Shown here in pieces: positions 1 to 56,800 of a stretch of 64,000 nucleotides of DNA. Both the position numbers and the translations under genes were made by a program. The notes under the pieces were generated by a model. The model did not search any database. It saw only the letters and a program-made list of their open reading frames with translations, and was not told where the DNA came from. Position 1 is the stretch's first letter, and every line of letters begins with the position of its first letter. The stretch comes from Cyanophora paradoxa CCMP329 (Eukaryota > Plantae > Glaucophyta): NCBI GenBank assembly GCA_004431415.1, contig QPMI01000692.1, positions 64,204 to 128,203 of the forward strand, in the 5' to 3' direction.

Positions 1-33
1 CAAGCGATCATTCACGATAATACCGGGTATTCT

Positions 34-285
34 GTGCGATGGTGGGTCGAAAAAGCCGATATGATCGATGACCATCCGTTTACTAAATTCCACAAGCGGG
101 CGGCTTTTGAAGAAAAGAAGCGCAAACAGCAAGAGGAGCAAGCGACAAAACCGCCGCCTGTCAAAGATTCGACAACTGTATGCAAAACTTTATCCAAATT
201 TGAGCGTGAGCTTGAAGGTATCCCCAAACTTTCGCAAATTTCGCCCAAGAAAAAGAAAATGTTAATCAAATGTAAGAGAAGATAA
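34..285 (+). CDS. Small basic hypothetical protein (start uncertain, may extend upstream)
   Basis: 83-aa Lys-rich ORF ending 2 nt before the next ATG (virus-like packing). Confidence 0.4.
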   Translation: MRWWVEKADMIDDHPFTKFHKRAAFEEKKRKQQEEQATKPPPVKDSTTVCKTLSKFERELEGIPKLSQISPKKKKMLIKCKRR

Positions 286-287
286 TC

Positions 288-971
288 ATGGTCTACCGAA
301 AGAAGCCTCAAACCATTCAAACGGTCGCTTCTGGTAATCCTAATCGCGGACTTGAAGAGTCTGGATTAACGTCGGGCGGCGGTCTCGAAATGCCCCAATA
401 TCTTATAGACACTTCGCCAGAAGAGGTCGCCAAGCAAGAGGCGATTATTGCGAGTGCCACCGCGGACAAGGGCAACCAAGATAGCGGTAAACGCCGAATG
501 GAGGATTTAGCTACTGTAAAACCACAGATTGGAGGCGGCTCCATCGATGAAGCAACCGACAAAGTACTCAAAGCGCAAGTTGTCGCAAGCCAGCACAAGA
601 CACAAGACGTCCCGAAAGCCGCCGAAACCGAGCTTAAAAAGCGCGGATCCTATCAAAAACACACGGTTCCTGTTGACGTTGTCATGAGCTTCGAAGAGAA
701 AGTGCGAGACCTTGAAATGAAAGTCTCTAACTATGAGAAATGGATGCAAGATTATAACGAACGCAAGAAATTAAAGGGTCTCGTAAAGAAAGAGATCTCC
801 AAACTCGGATTAAAGCAAAAGGTCGACGTAGAGGAGATTAAAAAGGAGGAAAAGACAGATGCGCAAGCCGTTACTCGTCAGCAATCGGTCGCCCCGCAAT
901 ATGCACATATAGTGCCGACTGCACCAGCGAATTTCGCGGCAATGCTCGGTGGTAAACGCCATATCCGCTAA
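288..971 (+). CDS. Hypothetical coiled-coil viral protein
   Basis: 227-aa ATG ORF with charged coiled-coil segment (FEEKVRDLEMKVSNYEKW); imperfect hairpin follows at ~1002-1024. Confidence 0.65.
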   Translation: MVYRKKPQTIQTVASGNPNRGLEESGLTSGGGLEMPQYLIDTSPEEVAKQEAIIASATADKGNQDSGKRRMEDLATVKPQIGGGSIDEATDKVLKAQVVASQHKTQDVPKAAETELKKRGSYQKHTVPVDVVMSFEEKVRDLEMKVSNYEKWMQDYNERKKLKGLVKKEISKLGLKQKVDVEEIKKEEKTDAQAVTRQQSVAPQYAHIVPTAPANFAAMLGGKRHIR

Positions 972-1175
972 TGACTGTGAATATCCGCAAGGCAAAGCTG
1001 AACCCGCCCGTATTTAGAGCGGGTCTTAATATGAACGCCCTTGCAAAACGGGCATGTGGGTTCTGTAAACAGCATTATAAGTTCGACCAACTCATAAGGA
1101 AACACACGAGCAAGCAATAGCCTCATTCCCTTTTATTTTCTCCGATATTTAATACGTTGCCCAATTGTAGGGTCG

Positions 1176-1610
1176 ATGAATTTCATCACACAATGCATCG
1201 AAATGTTTCATTTACATTTCATATCTCACTGTAAGTCCGGATGCTGCGACACAACCGTAGAGGTTGATATTACCGATGAAGACCATGGAGGTAGGCGCCT
1301 TTCTGTATATTCTAACCACAGCGACAATCACAACCACCCACGATCTCGATCACCCTCGCCTGTGACCGCGGCTATGAGTTCCAATATCGAAACCGCTCAG
1401 ATAGAGGACGTGCATGTAGAGCATATTAGAAGGCGCTCATGTCCTGAGTTTGTGGAAGGTCATTTGCGCGCTGACTCCCCTTATCCGATGTATAGATTGG
1501 ATCAAATGGCATTAGGCGACGATGAAAATGTAACGAACCCTTATGTTTATCCTCAGCAACCTTATGTATATCCTCAGCAACAAGAAAGAACCGTCTGGAA
1601 TGGTTATTGA
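1176..1610 (+). CDS. Hypothetical viral protein (HCKSGCC N-terminus)
   Basis: 144-aa ORF preceded by TATTTTCTCCG motif (~1134-1144); internal 21-bp duplication encoding PYVYPQQ twice. Confidence 0.6.
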   Translation: MNFITQCIEMFHLHFISHCKSGCCDTTVEVDITDEDHGGRRLSVYSNHSDNHNHPRSRSPSPVTAAMSSNIETAQIEDVHVEHIRRRSCPEFVEGHLRADSPYPMYRLDQMALGDDENVTNPYVYPQQPYVYPQQQERTVWNGY

Positions 1611-1711
1611 GCGGTGAATTTTGGTGGCGATTGTATCGAGCCAAGGGCAAAAATTGAAGGTTTCGGTTAAAGGTTTTTAAGGGCAAGGGAAATAATACAG
1701 AGTGACAAAAA

Positions 1712-1731
1712 ACTATTTTCTCCGGTTATAG
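1712..1731 (+). promoter_or_regulatory. Putative element promoter motif TATTTTCTCCGGTWA (also ~2283-2297, ~7617-7631, variant ~1134-1146)
   Basis: Near-identical motif a short distance upstream of four ATGs. Confidence 0.7.
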
Positions 1732-1734
1732 TAA

Positions 1735-2148
1735 ATGGCGAAACCCAAGATTTCAAACCAAGAGGCGATGGCGGCACAGCAGGAAAAGCGCAGACCCGGG
1801 CGACCGAAAAAGGTGATCACAGAAGAGGAGAAGGCGGAGAGATTAAGATTAAAACGCGAAAAAGACGCCGAGCGGCAGCGAAACAAGCATCAGAGACAGA
1901 AGGAGGAGCGATTAGCCGCCGGGGAAGCGACTGTATTTACCCCGGAACAGCTACAAAAGATTGCAATTCGTAAACAGCAGCGATACCAAGACGATGAAGA
2001 GTATCGGGAGAAAATCCGAGAGAAGGCAAGGGAATACCAACGCAGAAAGAGAGCGGAACGAAAGCTGTATCCGCCGGTGAAGCCCCAGCCGCAAAAGCCC
2101 GCTGGAAGACCCCGAAAGCATGTGGTCGAGAACGCGAAAAATCCGTAG
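1735..2148 (+). CDS. Basic protein with two AT-hook-like motifs, probable DNA-binding protein
   Basis: RRPGRPKK and PAGRPRK motifs; charged helix; promoter motif immediately upstream. Confidence 0.7.
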   Translation: MAKPKISNQEAMAAQQEKRRPGRPKKVITEEEKAERLRLKREKDAERQRNKHQRQKEERLAAGEATVFTPEQLQKIAIRKQQRYQDDEEYREKIREKAREYQRRKRAERKLYPPVKPQPQKPAGRPRKHVVENAKNP

Positions 2149-2317
2149 CGGAAAGTATCCATACGATGCAAAAAATGATTGATTTTTTACCTCCCTTTTT
2201 ATTCCCCGTATCGGTCAAAAAAGCACTTAAAGAATTGGCGACAAGGGTATGAAAAGGAAAATTTGGTAGATTGCGCCGAAATTATTTTCTCCGGTTATTT
2301 TAAAAGAACTAATAGAG

Positions 2318-5300
2318 ATGCCGCGCGCAACCAAAAAAATCGCTAACAATGTTCGGGACGAAATTATCGGATACATTATGCAGGGATTGAGTCAGGATTT
2401 GCTAACCGAAGAACAGGCGCATTGGGCGATGCACAACACAATGAACCGGAAGCCCAAGCTCCAAACGCTGATAGATATTCGGGATACTCTGAATGGCATC
2501 ATTAATCCCCGCGTTTTCCGCAGGGCAGAGCGGAAAGAGAAGCGCGCCGCTCGCACCCAAGTTAATATAGAAAAGCAAAAGCAAAAAGAACAAGAGGCGA
2601 AGCGTTTACAGCGCTTCGATCGCAAACAAAAACAGAAACGGGCGAAAGAGAAGAAGCTTCAAGCGAAGCAACTTAAAGAAGAGCGTAAAGCGTTAGAGGA
2701 TGCGATTAAACGCATTATTCTCGATCCAATCGCCGCATACGATCCGGAAACTCTCGCAACAATTACGTTCAAGCTATGGGGACCTGGATCCGGTGCTCGG
2801 TCGTCGGAGGTAATTGTTATTCCCGGAATTCCCGGAACATATATAAAAGACAGAACCTTTGTCACCTACAAGAATATAAGAGAGACAGTTTCGGTGAGGG
2901 TGTTGCGAAACTTTGCTCTGGCAAAAATCGATAGAGTGTATGGAATTCTCACCGCTCAAAATCGTTATTATTCGGAAGAGAGAGAGATTCAATCTTCGAT
3001 TTACTCGAAAACTACGATGAATTGAAGATTGGTCTGGGAACTTTCGCACAAGCATACGAGATGTTCTTCTTTAAGACACCACCAACCGAGGAACAGAAAA
3101 AACTACGCAAAGGTTTCGATGATTTTGGCGGCAGTGTCGATGATGCCTTTATAACTGTTCATGAGGTCGTGATCTATGGGGACGAAGGTGTCGAAGATGA
3201 CGGAGCCGGTGCTATACCTGGAAATCGCTATGGGTTTCTGGATGAGGAGCTTACGGACAGTATGCGATGCACCGCGATTATGAGCAAATTCACAGACTAC
3301 ACATTAAATCCAAACGCGTCTGAGTTCGAAGATATTATTGAGCTTCCCAAATCATCGACATCTAACGCTTGCGGCTATGATATGATCATCTCCACATGGG
3401 GAGCGTCCATTAAAAAGTGTCAGGAGGCGCCAAAACCGCGATATACTGACTTAACTATGTCGTACGACGGTCTCTATAAATTCTTTCACGGTCGTGAACG
3501 CACACCTGGCGACTCTCTGGCTCTCACGCTCCGCCACATCGAGAAATTCTGTAAGAGAATCCAGACAGGCTTCCGCGTCTTTGATGTCGACGGAAAGTTA
3601 GTATACAAATTCGCGGCGGAATCAATTAACAAAAACATCTTTCCCCGCAATATTCACTTTATGATTCACAACAAGCATATTTATATATTCAACGATAACA
3701 TCAAGTCGCTCGAAATGCGCATGGCAAAGATGGAGGTCGAAGAGCTCGATGATCATGTTCCTAAGTCGACCTCTTCGTTAGCACTATACAAAATTCCGAC
3801 GTGTCTTACTCACGATATCTTCGCGCACACATCCAAGGATCTGTTAAAGATCACGCAATTAAAACTATCGCCCGACGAGCGCAGTTTCATCCGCATTCTT
3901 TATACTGGGCGCGAAGGTCTGGAAGGTCTTCTATTTACGTTCCTGAAAATGCGATATGAGCCCGCTGTGAAGCTAACACCATCGAAACAAATCGACAGCA
4001 TCACATTCAAAGCTAATGGCTCGATGTTCTCTATCAAAGATCCACGCACAACATCCACGCACAACAGACCACTTTATTGAGCAAGATTTCGAAACAGAAG
4101 AGTATTATAATAAGGTCTGTGAAATCGGTAAGGGGTTCCGCGAGTCGCTACTAAATGCGACGAATATCTCACATTACAGTCCGAACATGCGCGAAATTCT
4201 CACGCACTACAAGCGATCCGCACTAAGCGGCTTTTTCTATAAGCCGAACCCGAAAGCTACCTACACAGCTGTCGATATGGCGAAGTGCTACCCTTCGATA
4301 CTGAAAGGCATGCAATATCTTCCGAAATACAATGTATTCGATGACTTCGTTCCCTTTAAAGCGGGAAGCGATATTCTCGAATACGCGATCTACTACGTGC
4401 GCGTGGTCGCGTTTGAGAGAGAGCAAGCGACTTTCGCCGACGACGAGGACATTGATTATGATGCCGCCGTTTCCCGCAAGATTGATGGAATCGAAATTAT
4501 TCTGGATCGCGCATTTTCCGTGAGTGGTCGCTGTTATAATTTCATGACAGGCTACACTCTCTCCATGCATTGGGCGGACGTAAAGGACAAGATAGAGATT
4601 ATCGCGGTCGCGGAGCCTTCGCATTTGGTGCCCAATACGTCGATCGCTGAGATGCAAAAAGTGCTGTCAAGCGACATTCAAACCACAGATAAGAAGCACA
4701 TTTTAGTGAAAGAGATCGGAATGCTCGGCAAATTCCAAGACTCGCAAACATCCACGAAAATGTTCTACAACCGTGCCGAGGCTGAGAGGTTCGCCCAAGA
4801 ATGCGGAGGAACAGTAGAGGTGTTTACTTTCAATCCTAAGAATTCGAAACGTGTCAAAACTCTTAGCGAATTCGAAGGTCACATCTATTTCGTTAAGATC
4901 AGCTCCCACCGCGAGCTCGTTAACGGATTCCTTCCTATCCACTTTCATATTTACGATCGTAACCGTGCCAATATGTTTGCGCAATACAAGCGCCTGACAG
5001 CGCGCGGGCACAAGGTTGCCGGGATCAGAACGGACTGTCTATATATCGAAGGTTCATGGACAAGTAAGAAAGAGTTCGACCGAAATGCGTTTGAGAACAT
5101 GGGCAAATTCAGCTATATTCCCGGGAAAAGATGCCCTGAGAATGCACTCCGCCCACCGCGGGGTGTAACTCTCGAATTTCAGGATCCCGAGACACTCATT
5201 AACCGGTTCTCGCTGAGGGACGAATTTAATCCGGAGTGCTTTCATTGGGTTGCGGAGCTCCATTAACGTCCTGAGTCTACGCATAACGTCCTGAGTCTAC

Positions 5301-6202
5301 GCATTAACAAGCGGCACAAGAAGGAGACAGACCGTGAATTAATTCGGGCGATTAAAGAGGATCTCTTCGAAAACGGACTCGAAGCCTCACAGATCATTTC
5401 AAAATACGGCTTACCGACAATTAATGATCTAAACGCTATTCCCGACGGCTACTTTGGCATCGCTTACAGAAACGAAATGACCTTAGCCTATAACAAACTG
5501 ATGCACGATAGACGGAAAGTAAATATTGCAACCGTAGAGGTCAACGGTATCAAATTCTACAAAGGTCTGGAAGTCGTTTGTCGCGGGTATCTACGCATTT
5601 CGCGATCTGAGGGTGAGTCTATTAATGCATACACAAATTACACCTATCGAATCACCAAAATCACAAAGCAAATGGTCACATTAACTGACGTTTTCGATGG
5701 CGTCACGTTCGAGGTTCCGTGCGCGATGTTAGAACATTTTTCTCTCCCTTATGCAGGAACAGGTCATTCAACGCAAGGTCTCACACTTGATTCGGGCATT
5801 GTCATTTGTGAGGCTACGTTCCGCTATACCACTCGCGAATGGTTCTATACCGCTCTCACTCGTAACCGCGATCTGTCCACTGTGCTGATTTATACACCGA
5901 TTCACAGATTCCAAGGAAAGAGCGACTACATCGAATATCTGAAAACGAAGATCCGCGGATATAAATGTCAGGATCAGCGTGCCGGGCGCGATTTCGACGA
6001 AGCGGATTATATTACGCCGGAGTGGATATTAGAGCGCAAGAAGCAACAGAAGGGCGCCTGTGCGATCTGTTCCCTTCCGATTCCGATTGAGCCGCAAGAT
6101 CCGAATTACAAGCTCGTCGTGGATCGCATTAACAACAGGCGCCCACATCTTAAAGACAATTGTCAACTCGCGCATCACGGGTGCAATTGCAGCAAAAAAT
6201 AA
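2318..6202 (+). pseudogene. Disrupted polyprotein: N-terminal domain / putative vOTU protease / protein-primed family B DNA polymerase / SF1 helicase C-half / HNH nuclease
   Basis: PolB motifs A (AVDMAKCYPSIL), B-like (KHILVKEIGMLGK) and C (GIRTDCLY) in 4016-5266. SF1 motifs LSLRINKR, YAGTGHSTQGLT and YTALTRNR after 5282. HNH CAIC...VDRINN...NCQLAHHGCN. Frames rejoin if slippage duplications at ~2976-2987 and 4040-4065 are removed. Confidence 0.8.
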
Positions 6203-6220
6203 ACAGGTTTAATTAGAAGA

Positions 6221-7603
6221 ATGTCACGGATCGTTAGAAGGGTAGCGGGCGAGGAAACGGAGACCACCATACTACCTATCGCGGTTCCTGAAACTGAGCA
6301 AGTCCCCCAAAAAATTACAAAACGCCAAGCAAAATCAAATTTATTAGGATATGTTCCTTTTAGCATTGCTAACCCGTCCTCTAAGATCGTGCGACGCATG
6401 TATGACCCAAAGACAGGTTTTAAGAACCCGTCCGCGATATACGAAGAGCTGAGAAAAGAGGACAAGACCCTCACACTGAAAGAAGTGCAAGATGTCGCAG
6501 CGAAACAGGAATTTATGCAGATCAACAAGAAGCCCCCCGCACCGACCCAAACCGCTTTCATTCCCATCACAGCCCCGCCGTGGTGCTATCAAGCGGATCT
6601 CATTTTTTATCTCTCATATGGCAATTATAATTCCGGCTACATTGCAGTCCTTACTCTCATTGAGATGACAAGCCGAAAAGCATATGCCAAGAAGTTAAAA
6701 AATAAGGAGGGCGCAAGTGTTGCCGCCGCTTTTGCGGAGATGCTCACAGAGCTTCCGGCTCCAATGAATCGATTGGAGACAGATAACGGCTCAGAATTCA
6801 TCGCGAAGGAGTTTCAGGAGGTCGTAAAAAATAATGGAATAGAGCACCGCTTTAAACAGGTCGGAGATCACACTTCGCTGGGAATTATGAATCGCTTTCA
6901 TTTGACCTTAAAAACGATGATAAATAATTACTGTGTCGCTTATAACACAGTGCGATTTATGGATAAATTGGACGACTTCGTTTTCAATTATAATAACACC
7001 ATTCACAGAACCATAGGAATGAAACCCGCGGATGTTAAGCTTTCTGATATGGAGCGGATCCGAGCGGCTATTATTTCAAGGAAGAACACAATCGTAAAGG
7101 ATATATTCAGCGACTTTAAGCCGGGTCTCCACGTCCGTGTATTATAGCCGAGATCAAAGTTTGATAAAGGAGCAACACAAAGGTATAGCCGAGAGGTCTA
7201 CAAAATTGCGGGAAGGAGAGGAAACGCGATAGAGGTGCAAGATGCAGCCGGGAACGTAATGCCGAAGCTTTTTAAGCCGCACGAGTTGCAAATCATTACA
7301 GAGGTCGAAGCTGTGGTGGAGCCATCAGGCAACGCTATTTTAGCGGCTGATGTAGAGGCAGCTTCTATCCGGCAGGTTCAAAAAGAAGGCATAGATGTCG
7401 CAGCAAGTGTTCCAAAAGGCGCATTATTGGAAAATCGCGCAGAAAAGACAAAGAGGGCGCTGAGAGAGCTCGCTAAACTCACGATTGCCGGCACTGAGAA
7501 GCTCTCTGAGGTAAACAGTCAGCGGTGGTATAAATCATTCAAGAATCAGAGCGCAAGCTATACAGCCCCTACTACGCGCATTCTTCGGTCATCTCGTTCA
7601 TAA
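6221..7603 (+). pseudogene. Retroviral-like (rve, DDE) integrase of Polinton type with in-frame TAG at 7145-7147
   Basis: YQADL, ETDNGSEF, NRFHLTLK and YNNTIHRTIGMKP motifs; past the stop the same frame reads PRSKFDKGATQRYSREVYKI (typical Polinton integrase C-terminal region) and joins ORF 7235-7603. Confidence 0.85.
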
Positions 7604-7642
7604 CAAACCCCGAAATTATTTTCTCCGGTAAATATAAAAGAG

Positions 7643-7957
7643 ATGGAGGGTGAAAAGCATTTCGTGGATATTCCGTATGATAAAAAAGACGTTGCGAAAT
7701 CCCTCGGTGGAAAGTGGGATCGTGAGAATTCATGCTGGTATGTCACGAAAAAAGATCACTCTCTATGCTCTCAGTTCAAAACTCTAAGCTATGAGCAAGT
7801 GTATCAAAGAAACGTGAAGGTTTACCTCGATATTCCTTATGAATTTAAGGATCAAGCGAAGGCTGAGAAAGCCCGCTGGGATCCCGTTATGAAATCCTGG
7901 TATGTCATGGGTCTCGATCACCCGCTAATGGGCAAGTTTCCGATCAAGGAGCATTAA
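7643..7957 (+). CDS. Tandem DUF5710-domain protein
   Basis: Two copies of the D-I-P-Y-x-x-K-D-x-A-K-x-x-x-x-x-W-D-x(5)-W-Y-V pattern. Confidence 0.8.
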   Translation: MEGEKHFVDIPYDKKDVAKSLGGKWDRENSCWYVTKKDHSLCSQFKTLSYEQVYQRNVKVYLDIPYEFKDQAKAEKARWDPVMKSWYVMGLDHPLMGKFPIKEH

Positions 7958-7981
7958 TGTATATGTCGTTTTTTTCATTTT

Positions 7982-8374
7982 TTATGAAATTGGGAACCTT
8001 TGCTCGACCTGTAAGTCCCACTTTCGCACTTTCAGCCTTTCTTGTATGAGTTCGTTAATGTCCCGTGCTATACCCATCGTCTTTGCTTCGGCATTTGAGC
8101 CGCATGTAAAGATATCGATCGCTAATAGCCCCTGGTCGCTATAAGAGTGAGCTGTGGCATGCGACTCATCTAATAGAAAGCCAATCGCGAAACCGGGAGG
8201 GGAAATAGAGCCATCGAAAATGCATGTGTGCTGGTGCACGATGCGCATATTGCGATCTGTGATATATTGCGATAGGTTCGCTGTGATCCACTCGGCGCAT
8301 GCCTCCGGGGACTCAGTAAACGGCTCGGTTATATAGTCGAGCATAACGTGGTAGCCGCGGTATCGGGAATCCAT
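7982..8374 (-). CDS. speD: Prokaryotic-type (class 1b) S-adenosylmethionine decarboxylase proenzyme
   Basis: GYHVMLD N-terminus, PPG, autocleavage site LLDE|SHATAHSY, and IDIFTCG with catalytic Cys; 130 aa, open frame. Confidence 0.88.
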   Translation of the reverse strand: MDSRYRGYHVMLDYITEPFTESPEACAEWITANLSQYITDRNMRIVHQHTCIFDGSISPPGFAIGFLLDESHATAHSYSDQGLLAIDIFTCGSNAEAKTMGIARDINELIQERLKVRKWDLQVEQRFPIS

Positions 8375-8758
8375 TATTATTTAAGTCGATATTTTTGTAA
8401 GCTATGTGGTTTCGTAGCCGCCAAATCGCGCCCTTTGCGAATCTGACCGCGCCGCTTTGTAGTAGCGTAGAACTACTCTATACGCGCGCGGATGCAAAGT
8501 ATAACTAGTGGAGCCTCACGGGAACGCGCGCCGGCGCTCAGAATGTAGCGGACACCTCCGTTTTCGGGCACTTGTGTAGAAATCGAAGTCGGTCTTTGCT
8601 TCACGGTGGGCTTAGCTAGTCAAAGCATAACCATCATGCCCGGAATCAAGGTGTGAGCACGTAGCAATTAAGAGCGCGCCGAGATCGGCTTCCTGTCCAA
8701 AGTTATGCCCGGAAAACGGAAGGGGGTCTCCGCGAAGTCGCGATCGCGATGTTATCGA

Positions 8759-8840
8759 GTCGGGACTCGGGACTCGGGACTCGGAACTCGGGACTCCGGG
8801 ACTCGGGACTCCGGACTCGGGGCTCGGGACTCGGGACTCC
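8759..8840 (+). repeat. ~7-bp (CGGGACT)n minisatellite, about 11 copies
   Basis: cgggact cgggact cggaact cgggact... read directly. Confidence 0.9.
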
Positions 8841-8975
8841 AACTTTGCAACTTAAAAAATGCAACCGACGGGGGTCAGAGGCTTAGAGCCCCGCGATCGT
8901 TTTTTTAAAAATATGCATTTTACACATTATTTATTGAGCCTATGAAACTTATTCAAAAGCCTATTATTATTTATT

Positions 8976-11900
8976 AACAAGATCCGTGCTCCTGCGGAGC
9001 ACTAAGTACGGCGAAGCCTCGCGGACGCCCTCGCAGCTGTCACAGTAGGCCTACAGGGCACCCACCGACTGCCAGGCTGGCCAGCGGCCTGGCCGATCGC
9101 GAACAGCTTTCTGGCTGGAAGCTGGCTGGCTGACGGCCAGTCCAGCTAGCGCTGGCCGGCTAGAGGAATATTAATGTACTGAGGAAATAAAGGGTGGAGC
9201 AGATTGAGAGGAGATTAATTATATAATATTGTTGGGAAGGAGGCCCGGGAGGAGCGAAGTTCCCGCGGCCAGGCGCATGCACATGCGTAGAGCTTGCGAA
9301 TCTCTTAGAATGCATATGCTATCAATGTGGAGGGCTGCGGAGGCGAGGGCGCACGGAAATATGTGCAGGCCTGTGCAGGATCGAAAATTTGGCGTCGGCT
9401 GGGTTCTTGTGCTCTTTCGCCCCCAGAGAGCTTGCGCAAAGCTTGGAAAAGCTCTCAAATGAATACTGTACGGATGGGCATGCGTGAGGATGCGATGGGC
9501 ATTCGAAGCTTGTGGAAGGCTTTTAAAACATCTCTGATGAATATTGTAGCGATGCCCGTGCGTGAGGATGCGAGGGCGCGCGGAAAGATGTGCAGGTCTG
9601 TCCAGGATCGAATTTTCGGGGTCGGCTGGGTCCCCGCGGCCCGGCGCATCCGTAAAGCGTGCGGAAGGCTTCTTCTACATCTCAAATGCTTATGCTATTG
9701 TTCCGCGCATGCACCGCGGCGTGGGCGCGCGGAAAGATGTCCGGGCCCGTGCAGGATCGAATTTTTGCCGCCGGCTGGGTTCTCGTGCTCTTTCGCGTCT
9801 TCGAAGCTTGTGGAAGGCTTTGATAAAATCCCAAATGAATATAGTAGCGATGTGCTTGCGTGAGGATGCGAGGGCGCGCGGAAAGACGTGCAGGTCCGTG
9901 AAGGATCGTATTTTCGGGGTCGGCTGGGTCCTCGCGGCCCGGCGCATCCGTAAACCGTGCGGAATGCTTTGTCTACATCTCAAATGCTTATGCTATTGTT
10001 CCGCGCATGCGCCGCGGCGTGGGCGCGCGGAAAGATATCCGGGTCCGTGCAGGATCGAATTTTTGCCGTCCGCTGGGTTCTCGTGCTCTTTCGCGTCTTC
10101 GAAGCTTGTGGAAGGCTTTGATAAAATCTCAAATGAATATTGTAGCGATGCGCATGCGCGAGAATGCGAGGGCGCGCGGAAAGATGTTCAGGTCCGTCCA
10201 GGATCGAATTTTCGGGGTCGGCTGGGTCCTCGCGGCCTGGTGCATTTAGAGACCGTGCGGAAGTCTTCTTCTACATCTTAAATGCTTATGCTATCGTTCC
10301 GCGCGTGCGCCGCGGCGTGGGCGCGCGGAAAGATGTCCGGGCCCGTGTGGGATCGAATTTTTGCCGTCGGGTACCTTCCTGCGCTGTTCCGGCTCCGAAA
10401 AGCGGATTTCGGGGGTGCGCAGGCCGTGCTATGTCTATACGCGCCAGTACGCGTCGATTGCGCGCGTCGCGGGACCGGCCGGAACCGGGAGGATCAAATT
10501 TCGGCGTACTGTTCGGACTGCAGCGTCGAGGGCGCCCGAAATCGAGCTTGCGGCGATGCGCTCGCCCTCGCCCGTCATTCTGTATCGTTCTGGGGCGTCC
10601 CTGGCGCGATTTCGTTGCGGGACCGGGTCCCACCTTCTGACTCGGACTGCATTTGTCGGAGGTTAAGTACCGGAATTGATCCAGAGGGAAATTCGATTTT
10701 CGCGCGACGCCCACGGGGGAGCGGTCGTCTTAGGGGAGCCAGGACGCTAAAAATGGATCTAGAGAGGTCTGTGGGGGTTCGGGTGGCTGAGTGACTAGCG
10801 GCAATCGTGTCCGTGTCGAGGCAGAATTAATAATTCTGTCTCGAGGGAGTGCGACACGGAAATTATTCGGCAGGGGGGATCTCGAGTGGAAAAAAAGGTT
10901 AAAAAAGGAATTTGGATCGGCGGTTTTTGGTTTTGAGACAAGATCCGTGCTCCTGCGGAGCACTAAGTACGGCGAAGCCTCGCGGACGCCCTCATGGCTG
11001 TCACACTAGGCCTAGCGCACCGGCCAGCGGCCGGCCCGGCCGGGCCGATCGTGAACAGCGCTGGCCCGGGCCGGGAAGCTGGCGGCCAGCTGCAGCCCCA
11101 CTTGTACTGGCCCGGCCAGCTAGAGGAATATGAAGGGGAGGGGTACCGGTTGGACTGGCTTTTAACTGGTGGAGCAGATTGAGAGCTCGAGGAGATTAAT
11201 TATAAAATATTGTTGGGAGGGAGGCCCGGGAGGGGCGAGGTTCTCGTGGCCAGGCGCATGCACAGAGCTTGGGAATCGCTTAAACAGAACCTAGAATGCA
11301 TATAGCATCGATGTGCAGGGGTGCGGAGGCAAGGGCACGCGGAAAGCTGTGCAGGCCTGGCCAGGATCGAATTTTAATTTCGGGGTCGGCTGGATTGCCA
11401 CGCCCTGTCGCGCCCGCAGAGCTTGCGAAAAGCTTTCAAAAGATCTCTGATAAATATTGTAGCGTTTTCCATACATGAGGACGCGAGGGCGCGCGGAAAG
11501 CTGTGCAGGACCGTCCAGGATCGAATTTTCGGGGTCGGCTGGGTCCCCGCGGCCCGGCGCATCCGTAAAGCGTGCGGAAGGCTTCTTCTACATCTCAAAT
11601 GCTTATGCTATTGTTCCGCGCATGCACCGCGGCGTGGGCGCGCGGAAAGATGTCCGGGCCCGTGCAGGATCGAATTTTTGCCGCCGGCTGGGTTCTCGTG
11701 CTCTTTCGCGTCTTCGAAGCTTGTGGAAGGCTTTGATAAAATCCCAAATGAATATAGTAGCGATGTGCTTGCGTGAGGATGCGAGGGCGCGCGGAAAGAC
11801 GTGCAGGTCCGTGAAGGATCGTATTTTCGGGTCGGCTGGGTCCTCGCGGCCCGGCGCATCCGTAAACCGTGCGGAATGCTTTGTCTACATCTCAAATGCT

Positions 11901-14534
11901 TATGCTATTGTTCCGCGCATGCGCCGCGGCGTGGGCGCGCGGAAAGATATCCGGGTCCGTGCAGGATCGAATTTTTGCCGTCCGCTGGGTTCTCGTGCTC
12001 TTTCGCGTCTTCGAAGCTTGTGGAAGGCTTTGATAAAATCTCAAATGAATATTGTAGCGATGCGCATGCGCGAGAATGCGAGGGCGCGCGGAAAGATGTT
12101 CAGGTCCGTCCAGGATCGAATTTTCGGGGTCGGCTGGGTCCTCGCGGCCTGGTGCATTTAGAGACCGTGCGGAAGTCTTCTTCTACATCTTAAATGCTTA
12201 TGCTATCGTTCCGCGCGTGCGCCGCGGCGTGGGCGCGCGGAAAGATGTCCGGGCCCGTGTGGGATCGAATTTTTGCCGTCGGGTACCTTCCTGCGCTGTT
12301 CCGGCTCCGAAAAGCGGATTTCGGGGGTGCGCAGGCCGTGCTATGTCTATACGCGCCAGTACGCGTCGATTGCGCGCGTCGCGGGACCGGCCGGAACCGG
12401 GAGGATCAAATTTCGGCGTACTGTTCGGACTGCAGCGTCGAGGGCGCCCGAAATCGAGCTTGCGGCGATGCGCTCGCCCTCGCCCGTCATTCTGTATCGT
12501 TCTGGGGCGTCCCTGGCGCGATTTCGTTGCGGGACCGGGTCCCACCTTCTGACTCGGACTGCATTTGTCGGAGGTTAAGTACCGGAATTGATCCAGAGGG
12601 AAATTCGATTTTCGCGCGACGCCCACGGGGGAGCGGTCGTCTTAGGGGAGCCAGGACGCTAAAAATGGATCTAGAGAGGTCTGTGGGGGTTCGGGTGGCT
12701 GAGTGACTAGCGGCAATCGTGTCCGTGTCGAGGCAGAATTAATAATTCTGTCTCGAGGGAGTGCGACACGGAAATTATTCGGCAGGGGGGATCTCGAGTG
12801 GAAAAAAAGGTTAAAAAAGGAATTTGGATCGGCGGTTTTTGGTTTTGAGACAAGATCCGTGCTCCTGCGGAGCACTAAGTACGGCGAAGCCTCGCGGACG
12901 CCCTCATGGCTGTCACACTAGGCCTAGCGCACCGGCCAGCGGCCGGCCCGGCCGGGCCGATCGTGAACAGCGCTGGCCCGGGCCGGGAAGCTGGCGGCCA
13001 GCTGCAGCCCCACTTGTACTGGCCCGGCCAGCTAGAGGAATATGAAGGGGAGGGGTACCGTTTGGACTGGCTTTTAACTGGTGGAGCAGATTGAGAGCTC
13101 GAGGAGATTAATTATAAAATATTGTTGGGAGGGAGGCCCGGGAGGGGCGAGGTTCTCGTGGCCAGGCGCATGCACAGAGCTTGGGAATCGCTTAAACAGA
13201 ACCTAGAATGCATATAGCATCGATGTGCAGGGGTGCGGAGGCAAGGGCACGCGGAAAGCTGTGCAGGCCTGGCCAGGATCGAATTTTAATTTCGGGGTCG
13301 GCTGGATTGCCACGCCCTGTCGCGCCCGCAGAGCTTGCGAAAAGCTTTCAAAAGATCTCTGATAAATATTGTAGCGTTTTCCATACATGAGGACGCGAGG
13401 GCGCGCGGAAAGCTGTGCAGGACCGTCCAGGATCGAATCTTCGGGGTCGGCTGGGTTCTCGCGGCCCGGCACATCTGTAAAGCGTGCGGAACGCTTGATC
13501 TACATCTTAGATGCTTATGCTATTGTTCTGCGCATCCGCCGCGGCGTGGGCGCGCGGAAAGATGTCCGGGTCCGTGCAGGATCGAATTTTTGCCGTCGGC
13601 TGGGTTCTCGTGCTCTTTCGCGTCTTCGAAGCTTGTGGAAGGCTTTGATAAAATCTCAAATGAATACTGTAGCGATGCGCATGCGCAAGGATGCGAGGGG
13701 GCGCGGAAAGATGTTCAGGTTTCTAGCTATAGAGGATCGAATTTTCGGGGTCGGCTGGGTCCCCGCGGCCCGGCGCACGTGCAAAGCGTGCGGGGTGCTT
13801 CTTCTACATCTCAAATGCTTATGCTATCGTTCCGCGCATGCGCCGCGGCGTCGGCGCGCGGAAAGATGTCCGGGCCCGTGCAGGATCGAATTTTCGCCGT
13901 CGGGTACCTTCCTGCGCTATTCCGGCTCCGAAAAGCGGATATTTGGATTGCGCAGGATCTGCTATGTCTATGCGCGCCAGTACGCATCGATTGCGCGCGT
14001 CGCGGGACCGGCCGGAACCGGCCGGATCAAATTTTCGGCCTACTGTTCGGACTGCAGCGTCGAGGGCGCCCGAAATCGAGCTTGCGGCGATGCGCTCGCC
14101 CTCGCGCGTCATTCTGTATCGTTCTGGAGCGTCCCTGGCGCGATTCCGTCGCGGGACCGGGCGGGACCGGGTCGACGTCCCACCTTCTGATTCGGACTGC
14201 GTTTGTCGGAGGTTAAGTACCGGAATTGATCCAGAGGGAAATTCGATTTTCGCGCGACGCCCACGGGAGAGCGGTCTTCTTAGGGGAGCCAGGACGCTAA
14301 GAATGGATCTAGAGAGGTTTGTGGGGGTTCGGGGAGCTGTGTGATTTGTGTGTGATGGGGGAAGCGTCACGTCCGTGTCGAGGAAAAATTATTAATTTTT
14401 CACGAGGAGGCTGCACAGGGAAATTATTTACAGGGGAGATGAAAAGTTTCGGGTTCGAATCCGACCGGAATTTGGCTCGTTGTTGACCGGGTTTGAGAAA
14501 GAGGCTTCGCCTGAAAGAGGCTTCGCCTGATAAA
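8976..14534 (-). mobile_element. Non-autonomous Helentron/Helitron2 (DINE/HINE-like) head-to-tail trimer with internal satellite arrays
   Basis: Subterminal inverted repeat GGCGAAGCCTC (9010-9020) vs GAGGCTTCGCC (14501-14511, 14517-14527); hairpin GTGCTCC-tgc-GGAGCAC (8986-9002); minus strand ends in CTTGT|T and starts in a T-run. Units restart at ~10938 and ~12850; internal ~300-bp subrepeats. Confidence 0.75.
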
Positions 14535-14734
14535 ATTCAAAAAACACTACTTTGAGGCATTCTATATATATTCGGAATCGCCGCGATGTGATGACCCCGA
14601 ATACGTCGGTGACCCTGTATATATGTATATGTCGGAATATGCGAAAAAAGAAAAAACAAAAAAGTGAAAGCTGTGCGGGATCACACACACGGAGGTTCAG
14701 ACATATATACGAAATATATACATGACTGAATTGT

Positions 14735-15544
14735 TTATTTTTCACCAAGTTCATAGTTAGTCATAATGAGATGGTTTCTTTTCTTTTTTGTCATACCATA
14801 CACTTTGCCATACGTATGGCGAATATAGGGTTTAAATAGGAGTTTCATTAAAAGAGCATCATTTACAACCATCATAACCTTGCATTTCGCTGTCTTAAAT
14901 AGGTCTTCCAAATCCAAAAAGAAGGTTTCTAAATCGAATTCTACATTTTCGTAAAAGTCATTATTGCTGTTTACGTATGGAGGATCGAGAAATATAAAAG
15001 CCGCTTCATCATCTCTATATTTGGCTACGATATCGCGAAAATCCCCATGGGATAGGCTGGCTTCTTTTATGAAATCATCGTAAGGTATCTTCTTTTTAAG
15101 AGTTGTATATGGACTCACCTTCACGTTTCGTTTTTTGAAATCACGGAGGGTTTTAACATTTAAAACGCTGTTTTTAAGAAGATAGAAATGGTGAGCCAAG
15201 TAATCCATTGCATCTTTACGATCATGTTGTAGAAACTTCTTATAGACTTCTTTATGCTCTTCTATATTGCTAACTGCTTCGAACTGTTTAAGACTCTCTA
15301 AGAGTTTAACTTTATTGTCTGGGTCTTTCATTGTATTCAAAAAAAGGGTATGGGTTTCGTCGTTATCATTCATATAATAATTAAACCGGTCTTTATGCTT
15401 TTCCCAAAGATAGAAACTACAAGCACCTGAACCACAAAACGGTTCTATAACTTTATTAATTCCTTCTAAATCGATATATGGATAGATCGTATCCATTTCA
15501 TTATACTTGTTGCCGGTATATTTATGGTAAAAGTGAGTCTTCAT
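14735..15544 (-). CDS. D12-class (Dam-like) N6-adenine DNA methyltransferase
   Basis: Y-T-G-N-K, IEPFCGSG (motif I), MND, FIFLDPPY (motif IV); 269 aa, intact, AT-rich, intronless. Confidence 0.9.
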   Translation of the reverse strand: MKTHFYHKYTGNKYNEMDTIYPYIDLEGINKVIEPFCGSGACSFYLWEKHKDRFNYYMNDNDETHTLFLNTMKDPDNKVKLLESLKQFEAVSNIEEHKEVYKKFLQHDRKDAMDYLAHHFYLLKNSVLNVKTLRDFKKRNVKVSPYTTLKKKIPYDDFIKEASLSHGDFRDIVAKYRDDEAAFIFLDPPYVNSNNDFYENVEFDLETFFLDLEDLFKTAKCKVMMVVNDALLMKLLFKPYIRHTYGKVYGMTKKKRNHLIMTNYELGEK

Positions 15545-15760
15545 TTATTATAGGAAGAGAAAAACAATTTATATATGTATCTCGCATGTAGTTTGCATGT
15601 ATCTTGCATAGTGGGCGGGGCGCGAGTGGTTCCAGTTGCGATTAATCGTGGTCTATCGTCGTACTTTGTCGGTGGGGCTTACCTTGGTCTCGCAAGTTTG
15701 TGCAGGTGGGCATTTTCGGCAGCACAAACTTGCTTTAAAAAATATAAAATGAAATTCGGT

Positions 15761-16108
15761 TTAACTCTTACGTGTTTTGCTATAACACTCTCGGCATTGG
15801 TAGTTGAGACCATCCTTCGTTCTTTGTCTTTTATTAAACTTACTTGCAAGCTTCTCAATCTTCAAAGGCTTGCAGTGCGAGCATATCTTCGATTGTACTT
15901 CGATCTTCGGACGCGTTTTTAACACACAATGATAAAGGTAATTGTGATACTCTCGGTCGCAGTCTTTGCATCTCCAATTCAAAAGTACATTCCCTGAGCT
16001 ACGCTTTTGCAATGCATAACTCGATGCCGGTTTTACCTTATCGCAAACATTGCACCGCTTACTCTCAGGTAAATTTACTTGATTGCTTGCCATTGTTACA
16101 TTATACAT
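15761..16108 (-). CDS. Small protein with two CxxC...CxxC zinc-ribbon repeats (NCLDV/PLV type)
   Basis: KRCNVCDKVK...WRCKDC and KICSHCK...YQCRECY. Confidence 0.7.
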   Translation of the reverse strand: MYNVTMASNQVNLPESKRCNVCDKVKPASSYALQKRSSGNVLLNWRCKDCDREYHNYLYHCVLKTRPKIEVQSKICSHCKPLKIEKLASKFNKRQRTKDGLNYQCRECYSKTRKS

Positions 16109-16474
16109 TCGGGATATCTTTAAGTGGGGATCACTTGTTTATTTGGTGGGGTTTACCTGGATTTTTCAATTTGGCTAACTGAAAACAGTCCGGAAACGAT
16201 CGGGAACATTTCGTAAAAATAAGGGTCTTACTGTCCTTACTGAGAGATCGGGGGAAAGTTAAAGGGCTTACTGGGAATGGTAAGGAATTAGAAAAATAAA
16301 GAATGAAAGGGTTTCGTGATTGGTTTCAGTAAGGAGAGGTTAGAAGTCTGAAAAATACAGTGCTATTTTATAGTTTGTTACTGAGCCTTACTGAGAAATT
16401 TGAAAATGGATAATGGGCTTACTGAGAATGGTAGTGGGAAGGTCGCGCAATTGGTGGGGCTTACCTGCATGCGA

Positions 16475-17040
16475 GCGGCAGCGAAGGCGTACCCCCACCG
16501 GGGACCCGGAGGGAGCGCGCGGGGAGGGGTTTGTGCATCTAGACCTAGGGCCTTCTCCGGGCCCGCGCGGGAGGGGTACGCCACCGCCGTCGCCTTCGGA
16601 CCAAGGGCCGATGGGGGGCCCCTTGCCCGAAGGCGGCAGCGAAGGCGTACCCCCACCGGGGACCCGGAGGGAGCGCGCGGGGAGGGGTTTGTGCATCTAG
16701 ACCTAGGGCCTTCTCCGGGCCCGCGCGGGAGGGGTACGCCACCGCCGTCGCCTTCGGACCAAGGGCCGATGGGGGGCCCCTTGCCCGAAGGCGGCAGCGA
16801 AGGCGTACCCCCACCGGGGACCCGGAGGGAGCGCGGGGGGCGGGGTACGGGTATCTAGACCTAGGGCCTTCTCCGGGCCCGCGCGGGAGGGGTACGCCAC
16901 CGCCGGCGCCTTTGGACCAAGGGCCCCCGCGATTGGGGGGCGCCTTGCCCGAAGGGGCCAGCGAAGGCGTACCCCCACCGGGGGGCCCGAAGGGAGCGGG
17001 AGGGTGGAAGTTTGGGTCGGGGCGGGGTACGGGTTCTAGA
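16475..17040 (+). repeat. 158-bp GC-rich tandem repeat, ~3.5 copies; probable terminal-repeat region of the PLV
   Basis: Units start at 16475, 16633, 16791 and ~16955 (gcggcagcgaaggcgtacccccaccgggg). Confidence 0.9.
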
Positions 17041-17639: not shown

Positions 17640-18704
17640 CACTAGTAGATAGGGGGGGGGGGAAGTGACATTATTCTGACAATATTCTGGTATTATTTAA
17701 AATGTCAGAATGAATGACATTATTCTGACATCATTCTGACATTACTAGACAGCGCGAGACTTCAAATGCTAGAATCAGCTCGGAAACTAGGCCGGCAGGC
17801 GTCCCCGGCCCAACATTTAGCGTCGGGCGGTGCTCTTTCGATGATGAGTGTCCGCTTGCGCCGGTTTAATGTCAGAATAATGTCAACATGCCCGATATTA
17901 TCTTGACTTTACTTTGACAATATATAGCCTCTTAATACTAGACATCCGTACTATACGCGCGCGGCCGCGCGGGCGGCCCCGCGAGGAGATTTCGGGCCGG
18001 CGCTCCCCGGACGCCGGCCGCCGCGCCCGGCGTATGGATAGGCCGTGTCAAGGCGCGCACGGGAAGCCGCGCACAGGAAGCGGCCCGGTGCGCCCCCGTT
18101 GGCCGCCCTAGGAGATAATGTCAGAATAATTTCAGATCAAGGTCAGGTGAGGGGTGTTCGGATGGGGGCGATCCGAGGTACGTACGCGTTGCAGCGCGCA
18201 TTAAAGAGACATCTAATATCATGTATAAAGGTTGAGAGCGGCGCCGTGGGCTGGCGAGCGCGCACCAGAAAAGCGCGGAGCTTCGCTGCAGTTTCGCTCG
18301 GACAGATCGCCTCCGAAATCTGGACACGCAAAGCTTGAGGTTAGATACAAACCAGTGTGAGGGGAAAGAGAGTGGGCCGAAAGTCGGCTACCTCGGCGAG
18401 TTCGGCCAGGGCGCGGCCAGGGCGAGCTCGGTCGCGTAAGAAGAGGGGAAGGAGCGGCGGAGGAGCCGCTCTTACACGGCCGTTTCGCGAGCATGTTGTT
18501 AGATTGTTGTTAGATTGATGTTATTGTGACATCAACATGACATTATCTCTGATATCACTCTGACAGTATTCTGACATTTTGGGATAATGTCAGAATAATA
18601 TCAAGTCGGACAAAAATAATGTCAGAATAATATCGGGTCTGACATTATAAATAATGTCAGAGTACTGTCAGAATAATCTCACTTCCCCCCCCTATCTACT
18701 AGTG
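17640..18704. mobile_element. Non-autonomous CACTA (EnSpm) transposon/MITE
   Basis: TIRs CACTAGTAGATAGGGG...GAAGTGA / TCACTTC...CCCCTATCTACTAGTG; 3-bp TSD TGA at 17637-17639 and 18705-18707; many subterminal TGACATTATTCTGACA-type repeats in both orientations. Confidence 0.93.
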
Positions 18705-53809: not shown

Positions 53810-56800
53810 TCACACGCGCCTGTGAATGAGAGCATAGCAGTCGGAGAAAACGTTGTAAACCTCTGGGAAGCTTGGCGCCATGCCTGCCCTTGCCTGCTTA
53901 GCCTGGCGCTCTACTGCGTCGTCGAGCATGTCTTCCTCCCACGTGATGTAGCGTCGCTTTCGGCTGCCCATTTGCCCTCCGTCCGCGTCGGAGAAAGCGC
54001 GTCTCACTCCGAGGTACTTCTCCAGCAGGTACTTGATGACTTGCCAAGACTGCTGCGAGAGCCGCTTCTTCTCACCGTCCGCTGCATCGAAGCGGGGCGC
54101 GCGCTCGTCCAGACTCTGCAGAGCCGCGTACGCCTCCCGACCTCCGGCGACGCCAGGGCCGCGTAGGCTTCGTCCGACCACAGAGCACGCCCCGCGAGCT
54201 TTCCATACCCCGCCAGCCGAAGAGTTTCTTGAACAGCGCGACGACCTTCGATACCTTGAGGCGCTCAGCAGTAGGCACGATCTCGGCAACGTCCGCGCCA
54301 TGCTTCAGCACCAGCGTGACCACGGCAGTGAGCGGGATGGAGTAGAACGAATCCACATCCAGGCGACGTCTCCTTCGGTCAGCTCGCTCGGATCCTTGGC
54401 CAGGAACGCGGCGATCGACGTGCGAGCAAGCGAAGCAACCTTCTCGATGTCCAGCTTAGCGAGAGACTCGCGGACTGCCTCCAGGCCAGCACCGTGCTCC
54501 ACAGATCGACGGGCTCCAGCGCGCCCGCCTCCAGCACGCTCCTGATCTCGCGCAGCCGCTGCTCCTTCTCCTGCTTCGGTCCGCTCGGGTTTTGATCCTC
54601 CGTGACTTGCACGTTCATCAGCGCGCAGGTCGACATCAGCCGCAGGCGCGCTGCCACTGCGAGGCGCCGAGTGGGCATGCCGGCGCGGCGGCTCCCGCGG
54701 TGGCTAGCCTTCAGGTCCAGGTAGCGCTGCATGTCGTCCGAGCTCTCGTCGTCGTCGCTCTCACGCCAGTGCGCAGCGCCGCGCCGACCGCAACCGAGGG
54801 CGTCCGGTTCTTGCGCACGGCGACGAGCAGGTGCTCCCCGTCGGGCGTGCTGCGTTTGCGCAGCCTTCTGACTCGAAACAGCAGCTGCACGATGTCGTCC
54901 GCCTCCAGCTGCGCGGGCTCTGCCTGGAACACGCCGTAGACCTTGTCAAAGTGCGCGTCCGAAAAGTCCACGCCTGCCCGAGCGCGGAAGTTGCGATGAG
55001 CACGTCGCAGGCCTTGTACGCGCCCTCCTCAGACACATCGATCGACACGATGCGCACTGGGCCGTCGTTCGTGAAGCGCACGCTCTTCTCCTTGGCCTGC
55101 CCAACGATGAGCCCGATCGTGAACGGTGCGCCGCTGCCGTCCTCGGGCCCTGCCTCGAGCTGAGTCACGTACTGAGCGCCGCCAGGCTGAGCTGCTCCAG
55201 CGCCTGCTTCGCAATCTTCTCCTGCATCTCGATCGCCTTGGCCGGCGTCTCTGCAATGATCATCGCCCGGCAGCGCCCGGTCTGCACAGCGCCATGATGT
55301 CCGCCTCGACGTGCGCCGGGCTGTCTGACACGCGCATCTTCCAGTCGCAGGTGCGATGCGAGTTGTACAGGAGCCCCAGGCGCGCCCCGACCTCCTGCGC
55401 CGACTCTGCCAGGTACGCGAGATCGACCGACCGAACGAAGCCGTCCATCGCCACGATGCGCGATGCCTTCATCACGCCGCGCCATAGGCCCACGCAGCGC
55501 GCGTTTCGAGGCACTGACCGCATACCTAGGTGCAGGCCGGTGGGCTCGAGGGTGCCGCTCGAGGTGAGGTGCTTCGTGAGGGAGGAGAGCTCGTCCAGCA
55601 CGACCAGTAGCGGCGCCGTCGACCAGCCCTCCCAGTCCTCGAGCACCTTGTGCAGCGAGTCCATGTGATGACGACGCACCTGCACTCCTCATGGCGGAAG
55701 CCCACTTGCCATGCGATCCCTTTGAGCTCTCCGGTGGCTTCTTGATGTCCATGTAAAGCACGGCGTCCTTTGACAACTCCGCAGCATCAATGCGACGCTT
55801 GAGGTCGCGGGAGAAGGCCCGGCGGCAAGTCACGAGGATCACTCGCCAGCCGCCTGCAAGGGCCGGGTCCAGGTACGCATCGATCAGCGCCTGCGTCTTC
55901 CCGTGTTGAGTCCGAGCAGATGACGTCGACCTGCGGCTGAGCGGATCTCGGGTTCTGCTCCAGCGCCCCGAATGCGGAGGTAAGGATCTTGCACGAGAGG
56001 TGGCGTTCATCCACTGCATTGACGCAAGCCTCCAGGCCCGTCGACTCGAGCGCGATCAGGAGGGAGGGGAGGGCAATGTCGAAGGCGACAGGCTGCGAGG
56101 GATCGGTCACATAGCGGGTCTGTGCCACGCTGCCCGACTCCCTCCGGTCCCTCCCCTCGAGCTCGACTTCAATACCGTGCGCCTGGATGGAGATTCGAGC
56201 CGCCGGCGCCCCCGGCTGACTCCCGCCCAGGACGAGGGTGATGGACCCGTCGGGCTCGACTCCAAGGTGCTGAACGCGGCGGGCGTCGTGCAGGCCAAGG
56301 TCCGCGCGCAGCTCTGCCCCGCCTTCCAGATCTCGTCCTCACCGCCTTGTTCTTGCGCAGGCGGTCCAGGAGCCGCTCCAAGGCCGGCAGGCTTGGGCTC
56401 GAATCCAGGAGAGCGCCCGGCTCCGGGATGGGCTTAGCGCGGGGCGCCGAGCTTCTGGATGGAGTGGGGAGGAGCTCCGCTCGCGGCCCGGGCGCCGGCC
56501 CCGCAGAACGTAGCCCCCGTGCATCCACACCGAGCTCCAGGCCGCTCGAGCTCCCAAAGAACCATGCATGAGATCGCAAGCCTCCGGGCTCTGTAGGACG
56601 TAGGCAGCCTTGAATCCATTATCCAAGGGGCGAGAGAAAGTGAAGCCTCCGAACTTGGTTGCAAAGGCGCAGGCTGCCGCGGTGCTCGTCTCATCCTCGG
56701 CACCCGAGAAGTGGCTGGGGGTGATGCAGGGCGGGTGGAAGACGCAGAAAGCCGTCCCCAGGGTCGGGCTGCAGGCCTTCTGGACTTCGACGAGAGGGAA

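Follow-up and report, generated by a model that had tools for sequence, protein, structure and literature searches.

A SpeD-family gene, likely a pyruvoyl arginine decarboxylase, and a methyltransferase cassette in an endogenous Polinton-like virus of Cyanophora paradoxa

Why does a small decarboxylase gene of the SpeD family lie beside a DNA methyltransferase gene in a Polinton-like element of an alga? The question is raised by a stretch of 64,000 nucleotides from Cyanophora paradoxa CCMP329 (contig QPMI01000692.1, positions 64,204–128,203 of the forward strand), which is termed the window here and from whose first letter all coordinates are counted. A sequence-only reading of this DNA had joined the two genes, as an S-adenosylmethionine (SAM) decarboxylase and a Dam-like adenine methyltransferase, in one SAM-manipulation module. 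The present analysis points elsewhere. It is probable, taken as a single claim, that an endogenous, multi-copy Polinton-like virus (PLV) is represented in this region by the right arm of a decayed copy, that the SpeD-family gene encodes, judging by its sequence relationships, a self-cleaving pyruvoyl L-arginine decarboxylase (ADC), and that the methyltransferase gene is an optional cassette which likely acts independently. The features at issue are the following.

7982–8374, minus strand: class-1b pyruvoyl decarboxylase that belongs to the SpeDA-like clade and is likely to act on L-arginine (130 amino acids, open frame)
8977–14532, minus strand: non-autonomous Helentron-like element of three tandem units with internal 149-bp repeats, non-coding
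14735–15544, minus strand: alpha-class DNA amino-methyltransferase of the D12 family, a presence/absence cassette (269 amino acids, open frame)

The decarboxylase and its relatives

The decarboxylase matches the Pfam AdoMet_dc profile (PF02675) at 45.2 bits, against a cut-off of 25, and carries E70|S71-H72, H76 and FTC91G. S71, H76 and C91 correspond to S63, H68 and C83 of T. maritima, the Ser, His and Cys residues needed for self-processing (PMC10407285, section 7). Profile and residues identify a class-1b pyruvoyl decarboxylase, and the intact class-1b frame with E|SH and FTCG described in the sequence-only reading is borne out. The label 'SAM decarboxylase' is not, owing to the clade in which the protein falls: it neither reaches the TIGR03330 cut-off for SpeD nor groups with assayed S-adenosylmethionine decarboxylases (AdoMetDCs).

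In phmmer comparisons the protein scores 64.5 bits against KAG5182568 of Tribonema minus, and 23.1, 23.0 and 16.3 bits against proteins of the phages S-PM2, phiYS40 and P2559S, which are assayed AdoMetDCs (PMC9992855). KAG5182568 is active on arginine and inactive on ornithine and lysine (PMC10407285, Table 2); the same source places it in an arginine decarboxylase clade with Poseidonales, Gimesia and Nannochloropsis, and reports that a Poseidonales member of the clade did not complement delta-speD. A single-sequence homolog search with the window protein found no match. A profile search gave 1370 matches, the 120 listed including Marine Group II archaea, Emiliania and the same Tribonema minus protein.

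Three trees, of 29, 41 and 62 rows, place the window protein with a SpeDA-like clade at 100/99. The clade contains the assayed Tribonema minus ADC, so that the window protein shares a supported clade with SpeDA clade 1, and the branch that sets it off from canonical SpeD is long and has full support. The speD phylogeny thus sets the protein away from the AdoMetDCs, and fits a remark made in passing in the sequence-only reading, that some homologs are neofunctionalised. The E. coli class 1a protein was left out of the trees; the motif picker missed L096, L119, L122–126, L133 and P0178, and the 62-row tree was built without VL130, VL132, VL137, VL138, L088 and P0068, which are redundant. A SpeDC ornithine decarboxylase was considered and rejected, L120 and L121 (SpeDC-like by a TSL..GHF-type motif, unassayed) lying far away in a quick tree.

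At the two positions that are candidates for the diagnostic 'gamma' proline of PMC10407285, the window protein equals the Tribonema ADC (S-12 present, S+8 absent). Pro at S+8 is found in 22 of 22 canonical proteins; it is absent from all 120 listed profile matches and from 119 of 119 representatives with the motif.

The gene neighbourhoods of archaeal homologs, viewed in 4-kb flanks, contain a DHS-like gene at 79 of 80 loci, and speE and a D12 methyltransferase gene at none of the 80; speE lies beside 6 of 23 canonical SpeD loci. PF01564 was found in none of five such archaeal genomes, which are incomplete metagenome-assembled genomes. Among 27 long matches scanned of 150 listed, fusions to DHS (five), PQ-loop (four) and agmatinase/arginase (one) domains were observed and none to spermidine synthase, which tblastn also failed to detect at 15 viral loci. 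The spermidine synthase partner of a bona fide SpeD was not seen among close relatives, and DHS-fused relatives occur both inside and outside the window subclade (P0211, P0216, P0232).

Some of the fusions involve PQ-loop domains (P0180, P0189, P0205, P0206), which we take to be cationic amino-acid transporters, NNMT-like plus DHS domains (P0211, P0216, P0272, P0310) and SET domains (P0196, P0239), and as sequences they suggest undescribed transporter-coupled or methylated-polyamine pathways in the SpeDA clade.

Because the window protein lies in a subclade sister to that of the assayed enzyme, its arginine specificity is something we infer only, and we hold it to be highly probable. The proenzyme would cleave at E70|S71 and convert arginine to agmatine, and the further steps from agmatine to putrescine and (homo)spermidine would fall, during replication, to enzymes of the host or of a helper virus. 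The data fit the polyamine branch of the earlier proposal.

It should be pointed out that several observations weigh against this interpretation. In the 62-row tree the window protein falls in a 23-row subclade (96/91), which includes a Chromulina protein and DHS fusions and is sister to the subclade of the Tribonema enzyme and Poseidoniales homologs; the window protein is not bracketed by assayed enzymes. With the 29-row tree, nested and sister placements are not separated (p-AU 0.27). The shortfall against TIGR03330 (48.6 bits, cut-off 75.65) has no score on a SpeDA model to set beside it. The assayed AdoMetDC of phiYS40 is likewise without Pro at S+8, and in fact has neither candidate proline. 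Fusions to SAM-dependent domains also occur within the clade, NNMT-like in 4 of 27 long matches and SET in 2 of 27. Lastly, no agmatinase or homospermidine synthase was found in the part of the element within the window.

The methyltransferase cassette and the element around it

The methyltransferase matches MethyltransfD12 (PF02086) at 59.9 bits, with a cut-off of 22, and has FCGSG and DPPY, the FxGxG motif preceding DPPY as in the alpha class. An intact methyltransferase with these motifs had been described and is confirmed; its designation as Dam-like and adenine-specific is not borne out, as it scores 50.4 bits on the Dam-type model TIGR00571 (cut-off 114.85) and its best PDB match is 7M6B, M.CbeI, at 40.6 bits versus 27 for Dam, a remote similarity (E about 1e-9). 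M.CbeI, which possesses DPPY and had been given a D12 adenine annotation, methylates N4-cytosine in GGCC (PMC3425538). Since the nearest solved relative methylates cytosine and the similarity is remote, the label 'adenine' is unproven. The idea of aminopropyl-type DNA modification fared no better, the protein being an ordinary DPPY/FxGxG amino-methyltransferase with no spermidine-synthase-like signature. Two close homologs, at 38% identity, are uncharacterised, and no cognate endonuclease was found in the window.

The composition of the gene is foreign to the element. Its GC content is 33.6%, and 34% at third codon positions (GC3), against a GC3 of 42–58% in the other eleven open reading frames (ORFs) measured; the decarboxylase has 49.4% GC and a GC3 of 56.5%. 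Contigs join 14735 to 15581, omitting the whole methyltransferase, in three of four runs, and the fourth has matching loose ends. A point on the other side is that these joints have only 26–36 letters on the short side, aligned at 80% likeness. Other contig joints omit the zinc-finger gene (14440–16450 region), and no joint across the decarboxylase was listed in the aligned runs. As joints omit the methyltransferase or the zinc-finger gene, the right arm is considered a region of presence/absence cargo. The methyltransferase is likely an optional cassette, absent from some sister copies, and likely acts independently of the decarboxylase; the two genes would owe their proximity to a shared place in the variable cargo arm, and not to SAM being common to them. 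Most PLVs carry a methyltransferase, in keeping with what the sequence-only reading said of PLV cargo, and these enzymes have been proposed to counter giant-virus restriction-modification (bioRxiv 2026.06.19.733378; 10.1101/2022.05.02.489867). The enzyme of the window would protect the viral DNA against cleavage by restriction endonucleases that giant viruses bring into a co-infected cell.

Most of the 5.6 kb between the two genes is the Helentron-like insertion. Without it the gap between the genes, both on the minus strand, is 804 bp, in agreement with the earlier estimate of less than 1 kb. The insertion has an 11-bp subterminal inverted repeat (9010/10971/12883 versus 14501/14517), a 3′ hairpin (8986/10947/12859), a T-rich target and A/T-rich flanks on both sides. 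Subterminal inverted repeats and a 3′ stem-loop are the anatomy of Helentron/DINE-1 elements (PMC4067079), and the non-autonomous Helentron first read here is upheld. Neither an empty site nor an autonomous partner was seen, and among the contig rows shown none joins 8976 to 14533. A second insertion at 8460–14549, considered on account of a 5-bp flanking repeat, was rejected, there being no dominant junction in aligned contigs.

The remaining features of the element are as follows.

3061–5266, plus strand: gene resembling a protein-primed family B DNA polymerase (pPolB), with motifs DMAKCYP, K..LVKEIG and RTDC
5477–6202, plus strand: C-terminal part of a superfamily 1 (SF1) helicase fused to an HNH/EndoVII-like domain, by profile matches
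6221–7603, plus strand: rve integrase (PF00665, 52.4 bits) with one premature stop
7643–7957, plus strand: DUF5710 protein, by profile match, convergent with the decarboxylase
8375–8976, no strand: multi-copy non-coding stretch with a 7-bp tandem array at 8760–8839
15761–16108, minus strand: double zinc-finger protein, absent from some sister copies
16475–16998, no strand: GC-rich hairpin repeats of 158 bp, placed at the element's right end or past it, the terminus not being fixed

The pPolB-like gene, SF1 helicase and rve integrase make up a PLV core, which sustains the Polinton-like context proposed at the outset; pPolB is assigned by motifs and, as a lead only, by an ESM Atlas value of 0.97 to a cluster with PF03175 in 15% of its members. 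Single-sequence AlphaFold models of the two polymerase halves are poor (pLDDT 33.7 and 33.3), and no N-terminal SF1 helicase part was seen in the element. The polymerase gene has a frameshift near 4016–4080, then a stop and a 20-bp duplication at 5264–5304. The integrase stop is private to the window copy, aligned contigs of other copies being without it, and 13 of the 15 integrase variants listed among copies are synonymous. One contig links the DUF5710 gene to the decarboxylase, with which the stretch 8375–8976 is continuous up to 8750 in other copies. About half of the words of 1–8450 are contained in 20 of 24 listed sequencing runs of one organism; the aligned contigs represent many variant copies, and all 30 bins of 6900–8750 are covered in three of three DNA-type runs. 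Sister copies were read through short unitigs only, whose depths are not copy numbers, and copy-number ratios are unreliable. GC content is 45–47% in 1–8459, about 37% in 14533–16450 and about 68% in the flanking DNA, where genes of RWP-RK, copine and F-box-like type would suit a protist or alga. As the window begins within the element, the left end and any capsid and ATPase genes would lie beyond it, and no inverted match of the element ends was found within the window.

The motif TATTTTCT stands ahead of four plus-strand ORFs in the element. TATTTTCTCCG, likely a viral promoter, occurs at 1134, 1714, 2283 and 7617, shortly upstream of four plus-strand ORFs, and was not found upstream of the decarboxylase. 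The repeats at 16475–16998 comprise 3.3 copies of a 158-bp unit of 70% GC with strong hairpins, either a terminal repeat or a host satellite, and are rich in CTAG and GGCC, opposite to the element interior. Further to the right lie a non-coding CACTA-type miniature inverted-repeat transposable element (17640–18704; terminal inverted repeats of about 65 bp starting CACTA, 3-bp flanking duplication), a minus-strand fragment matching a herpes origin-binding-protein-like helicase (55165–56055; PF02399, 21.9 bits), possibly another viral relic, and 210-bp tandem units with an inverted copy (62052–63049).

SpeD-family genes in other viruses, and palindrome avoidance

A broad alignment (A3) recovered 15 SpeD-family loci from IMG/VR; scans of viral contigs with single window proteins (decarboxylase, methyltransferase, integrase, polymerase, helicase) or with the narrow alignments A1 and A2 recovered none. 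Thirteen of the 14 loci placed fall in the clade of the window decarboxylase, L140 being canonical, and three of the 15 contigs are named GVMAG. L136, L137, L138 and L141 form a syntenic family with decarboxylases 74–82% identical. In a scan of 63 ORFs at eight of the 15 loci, L136 (18.9 kb) and L141 (20.1 kb) showed an A32 ATPase together with a gene for a primase or helicase, and L134 (18.3 kb) and L139 (16.4 kb) appear similar. L136, L141 and L134 are regarded as PLVs on account of size, A32 ATPase, primase-helicase, lipase and a presumed resemblance of the N-terminus of the putative capsid proteins, whose genes have no match in Pfam or PDB. In the L136 family, and also in L134 and L139, the SpeDA-clade gene lies between helicase and A32 ATPase modules. 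In a GVMAG contig an ATG8 gene comes immediately after a SpeD-family gene (L133:9926–10814).

The decarboxylases of L134/L136-type contigs sit on a branch apart from that of the window, which implies that viruses acquired the gene at least twice. No literature report of the SpeD/SpeDA family in PLVs was found, in a search mostly without subscription papers, and supplementary gene tables could list such genes. In its available text, a survey of 2,355 PLVs lists other auxiliary genes and never 'decarboxylase' (bioRxiv 2026.05.28.728513), and 'polinton' is absent from the main text of PMC9992855. The enzyme class is already known, and the viral carrier is new. With this gene the viral polyamine metabolism described for phages and giant viruses would extend to PLVs, in at least two separate viral lineages. 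There is also an annotation trap, as genes of small eukaryotic DNA viruses may be labelled 'SAM decarboxylase' and 'adenine methyltransferase' with both labels wrong.

Linkage of speD and methyltransferase genes was not corroborated in viral contigs. An amino-methyltransferase motif ORF occurs at 3 of the 15 loci (L127, L139, L140; contigs partly covered), one with a canonical SpeD, and none of the three matches the window enzyme by tblastn. It counts against independence of the two genes that L127, the nearest viral relative in the 41-row tree analysis, carries a D12 methyltransferase on the other strand at a distance of 4.2 kb, and that L139 has an adjoining methyltransferase of another family. 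A separate adjacency is found in Croceibacter phage P2559S, where there is an overlap between the gene for the assayed AdoMetDC and one whose annotation names a methyltransferase domain (L091:1–236).

The element also avoids certain palindromes. GGCC, with 568 sites in the window, has none in 1–9047 and 14041–16548. In 1–8459 and 14533–16450 CTAG is likewise wholly missing, and GTAC and GGNCC are strongly depleted. In 13 element ORFs GGCC and CTAG are missing (16.7 and 12.1 expected), GTAC occurs 4 times (18.6 expected) and GGNCC once (12.9 expected); none of 500 synonymous-codon shuffles was as low. Eight other palindromes, GATC included, are not below all 500 shuffles, and host DNA and the Helentron show no loss of these palindromes. 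In L134, L136, L139 and L141 both GGCC and GTAC are scarce as well, which is not the case in L127 or L129. We infer restriction pressure as the cause, toxicity of a methylated motif being an alternative. A literature search on palindrome avoidance in PLVs found nothing relevant. It has been proposed that virophages and PLVs are targets of the restriction systems of giant viruses (PMC13196603, PMC7253447), and the purge of 4-bp palindromes provides a sequence-level handle on it. A bolder proposition, improbable in our view, is that PLVs repeatedly recruited a pyruvoyl ADC, in common with giant viruses, steering arginine/polyamine flux, and also purged GGCC while carrying an M.CbeI-like GGCC N4-cytosine methyltransferase; if true, that methyltransferase would mark host or helper-virus DNA only.

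Alternative explanations and known systems

Among other explanations, the one that survives best, unlikely as it is, holds that the two genes come from different elements or element ends and were brought together around the Helentron. The missing contig link from 8976 to 14533 would agree with this, as would the tandem array in 8375–8976, such as terminal repeats can have, the more A/T-rich right part, and a 5-bp direct repeat (8455–8459, 14550–14554) around short inverted ends that could mark another insertion. However, the Helentron has A/T-rich, non-host DNA on either side and no host sequence intervenes, GGCC is absent from both parts, and of the loose ends shown none that is dominant lies at 8459 (21 further are not shown).

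It is improbable that the gene encodes a true or dual-specific AdoMetDC, providing decarboxylated SAM (dcSAM) for host spermidine synthesis independently of the methyltransferase. The window subclade is without an assayed member, the protein retains Pro at S-12, as canonical enzymes do, and eukaryotic giant viruses encode assayed class-1b AdoMetDCs (PMC9992855); set against this are the long branch to canonical SpeD, the want of a spermidine synthase beside or fused to any relative examined, and the distribution of DHS-fused relatives. We give even less credence to the decarboxylase as an inert passenger, kept through recent amplification of the family. The window copy is decayed, but the catalytic residues are intact, four of the six listed (best-supported) variants among copies are synonymous, and homologs in four other PLV-like contigs are syntenic and 74–82% identical. 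The coupled SAM module of the sequence-only reading, in which dcSAM dampens host methylation or the methyltransferase fold moves aminopropyl onto DNA, is very improbable, since the common strand, the short gap, the examples of L127 and L139 and the fusion of some cellular relatives to small-molecule methyltransferase domains are offset by the ADC clade of the decarboxylase, by the absence of the methyltransferase from sister copies, its foreign composition and its rarity or absence at viral and archaeal loci, and by most PLVs carrying such an enzyme anyway.

Read as a probable ADC beside an independent cassette, the pair can be compared with known systems. The decarboxylase has in common with SpeDA clade 1 ADCs (Tribonema minus KAG5182568, Nannochloropsis gaditana, Ca. 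Poseidonales, Gimesia maris; PMC10407285) the class-1b fold, the S/H/C triad and the signature PPGF..DESH..AH.Y..G.LA.D.FTCG, with 42% identity over 101 amino acids to the Tribonema enzyme. It differs in that it is virus-borne and alone, without speY or speB, and lies in a sister subclade of the assayed enzymes, as read from sequence alone. The methyltransferase shares the D12 family, FxGxG and DPPY with M.CbeI/DmtB and E. coli Dam (PMC3425538, PMC8616854), its similarity to them being remote only. The insertion resembles HINE/DINE-1 Helentrons (PMC4067079) in its 11-bp subterminal inverted repeats, 3′ stem-loop, internal tandem repeats and T-rich site, and differs as a three-unit tandem array with the 5′ end kept in one unit only.

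With polB-SF1 helicase PLVs (PMC12721341; bioRxiv 2026.06.19.733378; PMC10120064), the element shares pPolB followed by SF1 helicase, the rve integrase, insertion as low-GC DNA into a GC-rich genome of protist type, its presence in many copies and methyltransferase cargo; the window includes neither a capsid module nor termini, and the element adds a SpeD-family gene. Viral polyamine genes are represented by the SpeD-derived ADC of the pelagiphage HTVC201P, the phycodnavirus AdoMetDCs and the pyridoxal phosphate (PLP)-dependent ADC of the chlorovirus PBCV-1 (PMC9992855). The shared feature is a polyamine enzyme carried by a virus, small and PLP-independent in the window; the carrier here is a Polinton-like element, whereas theirs are phages and giant viruses.

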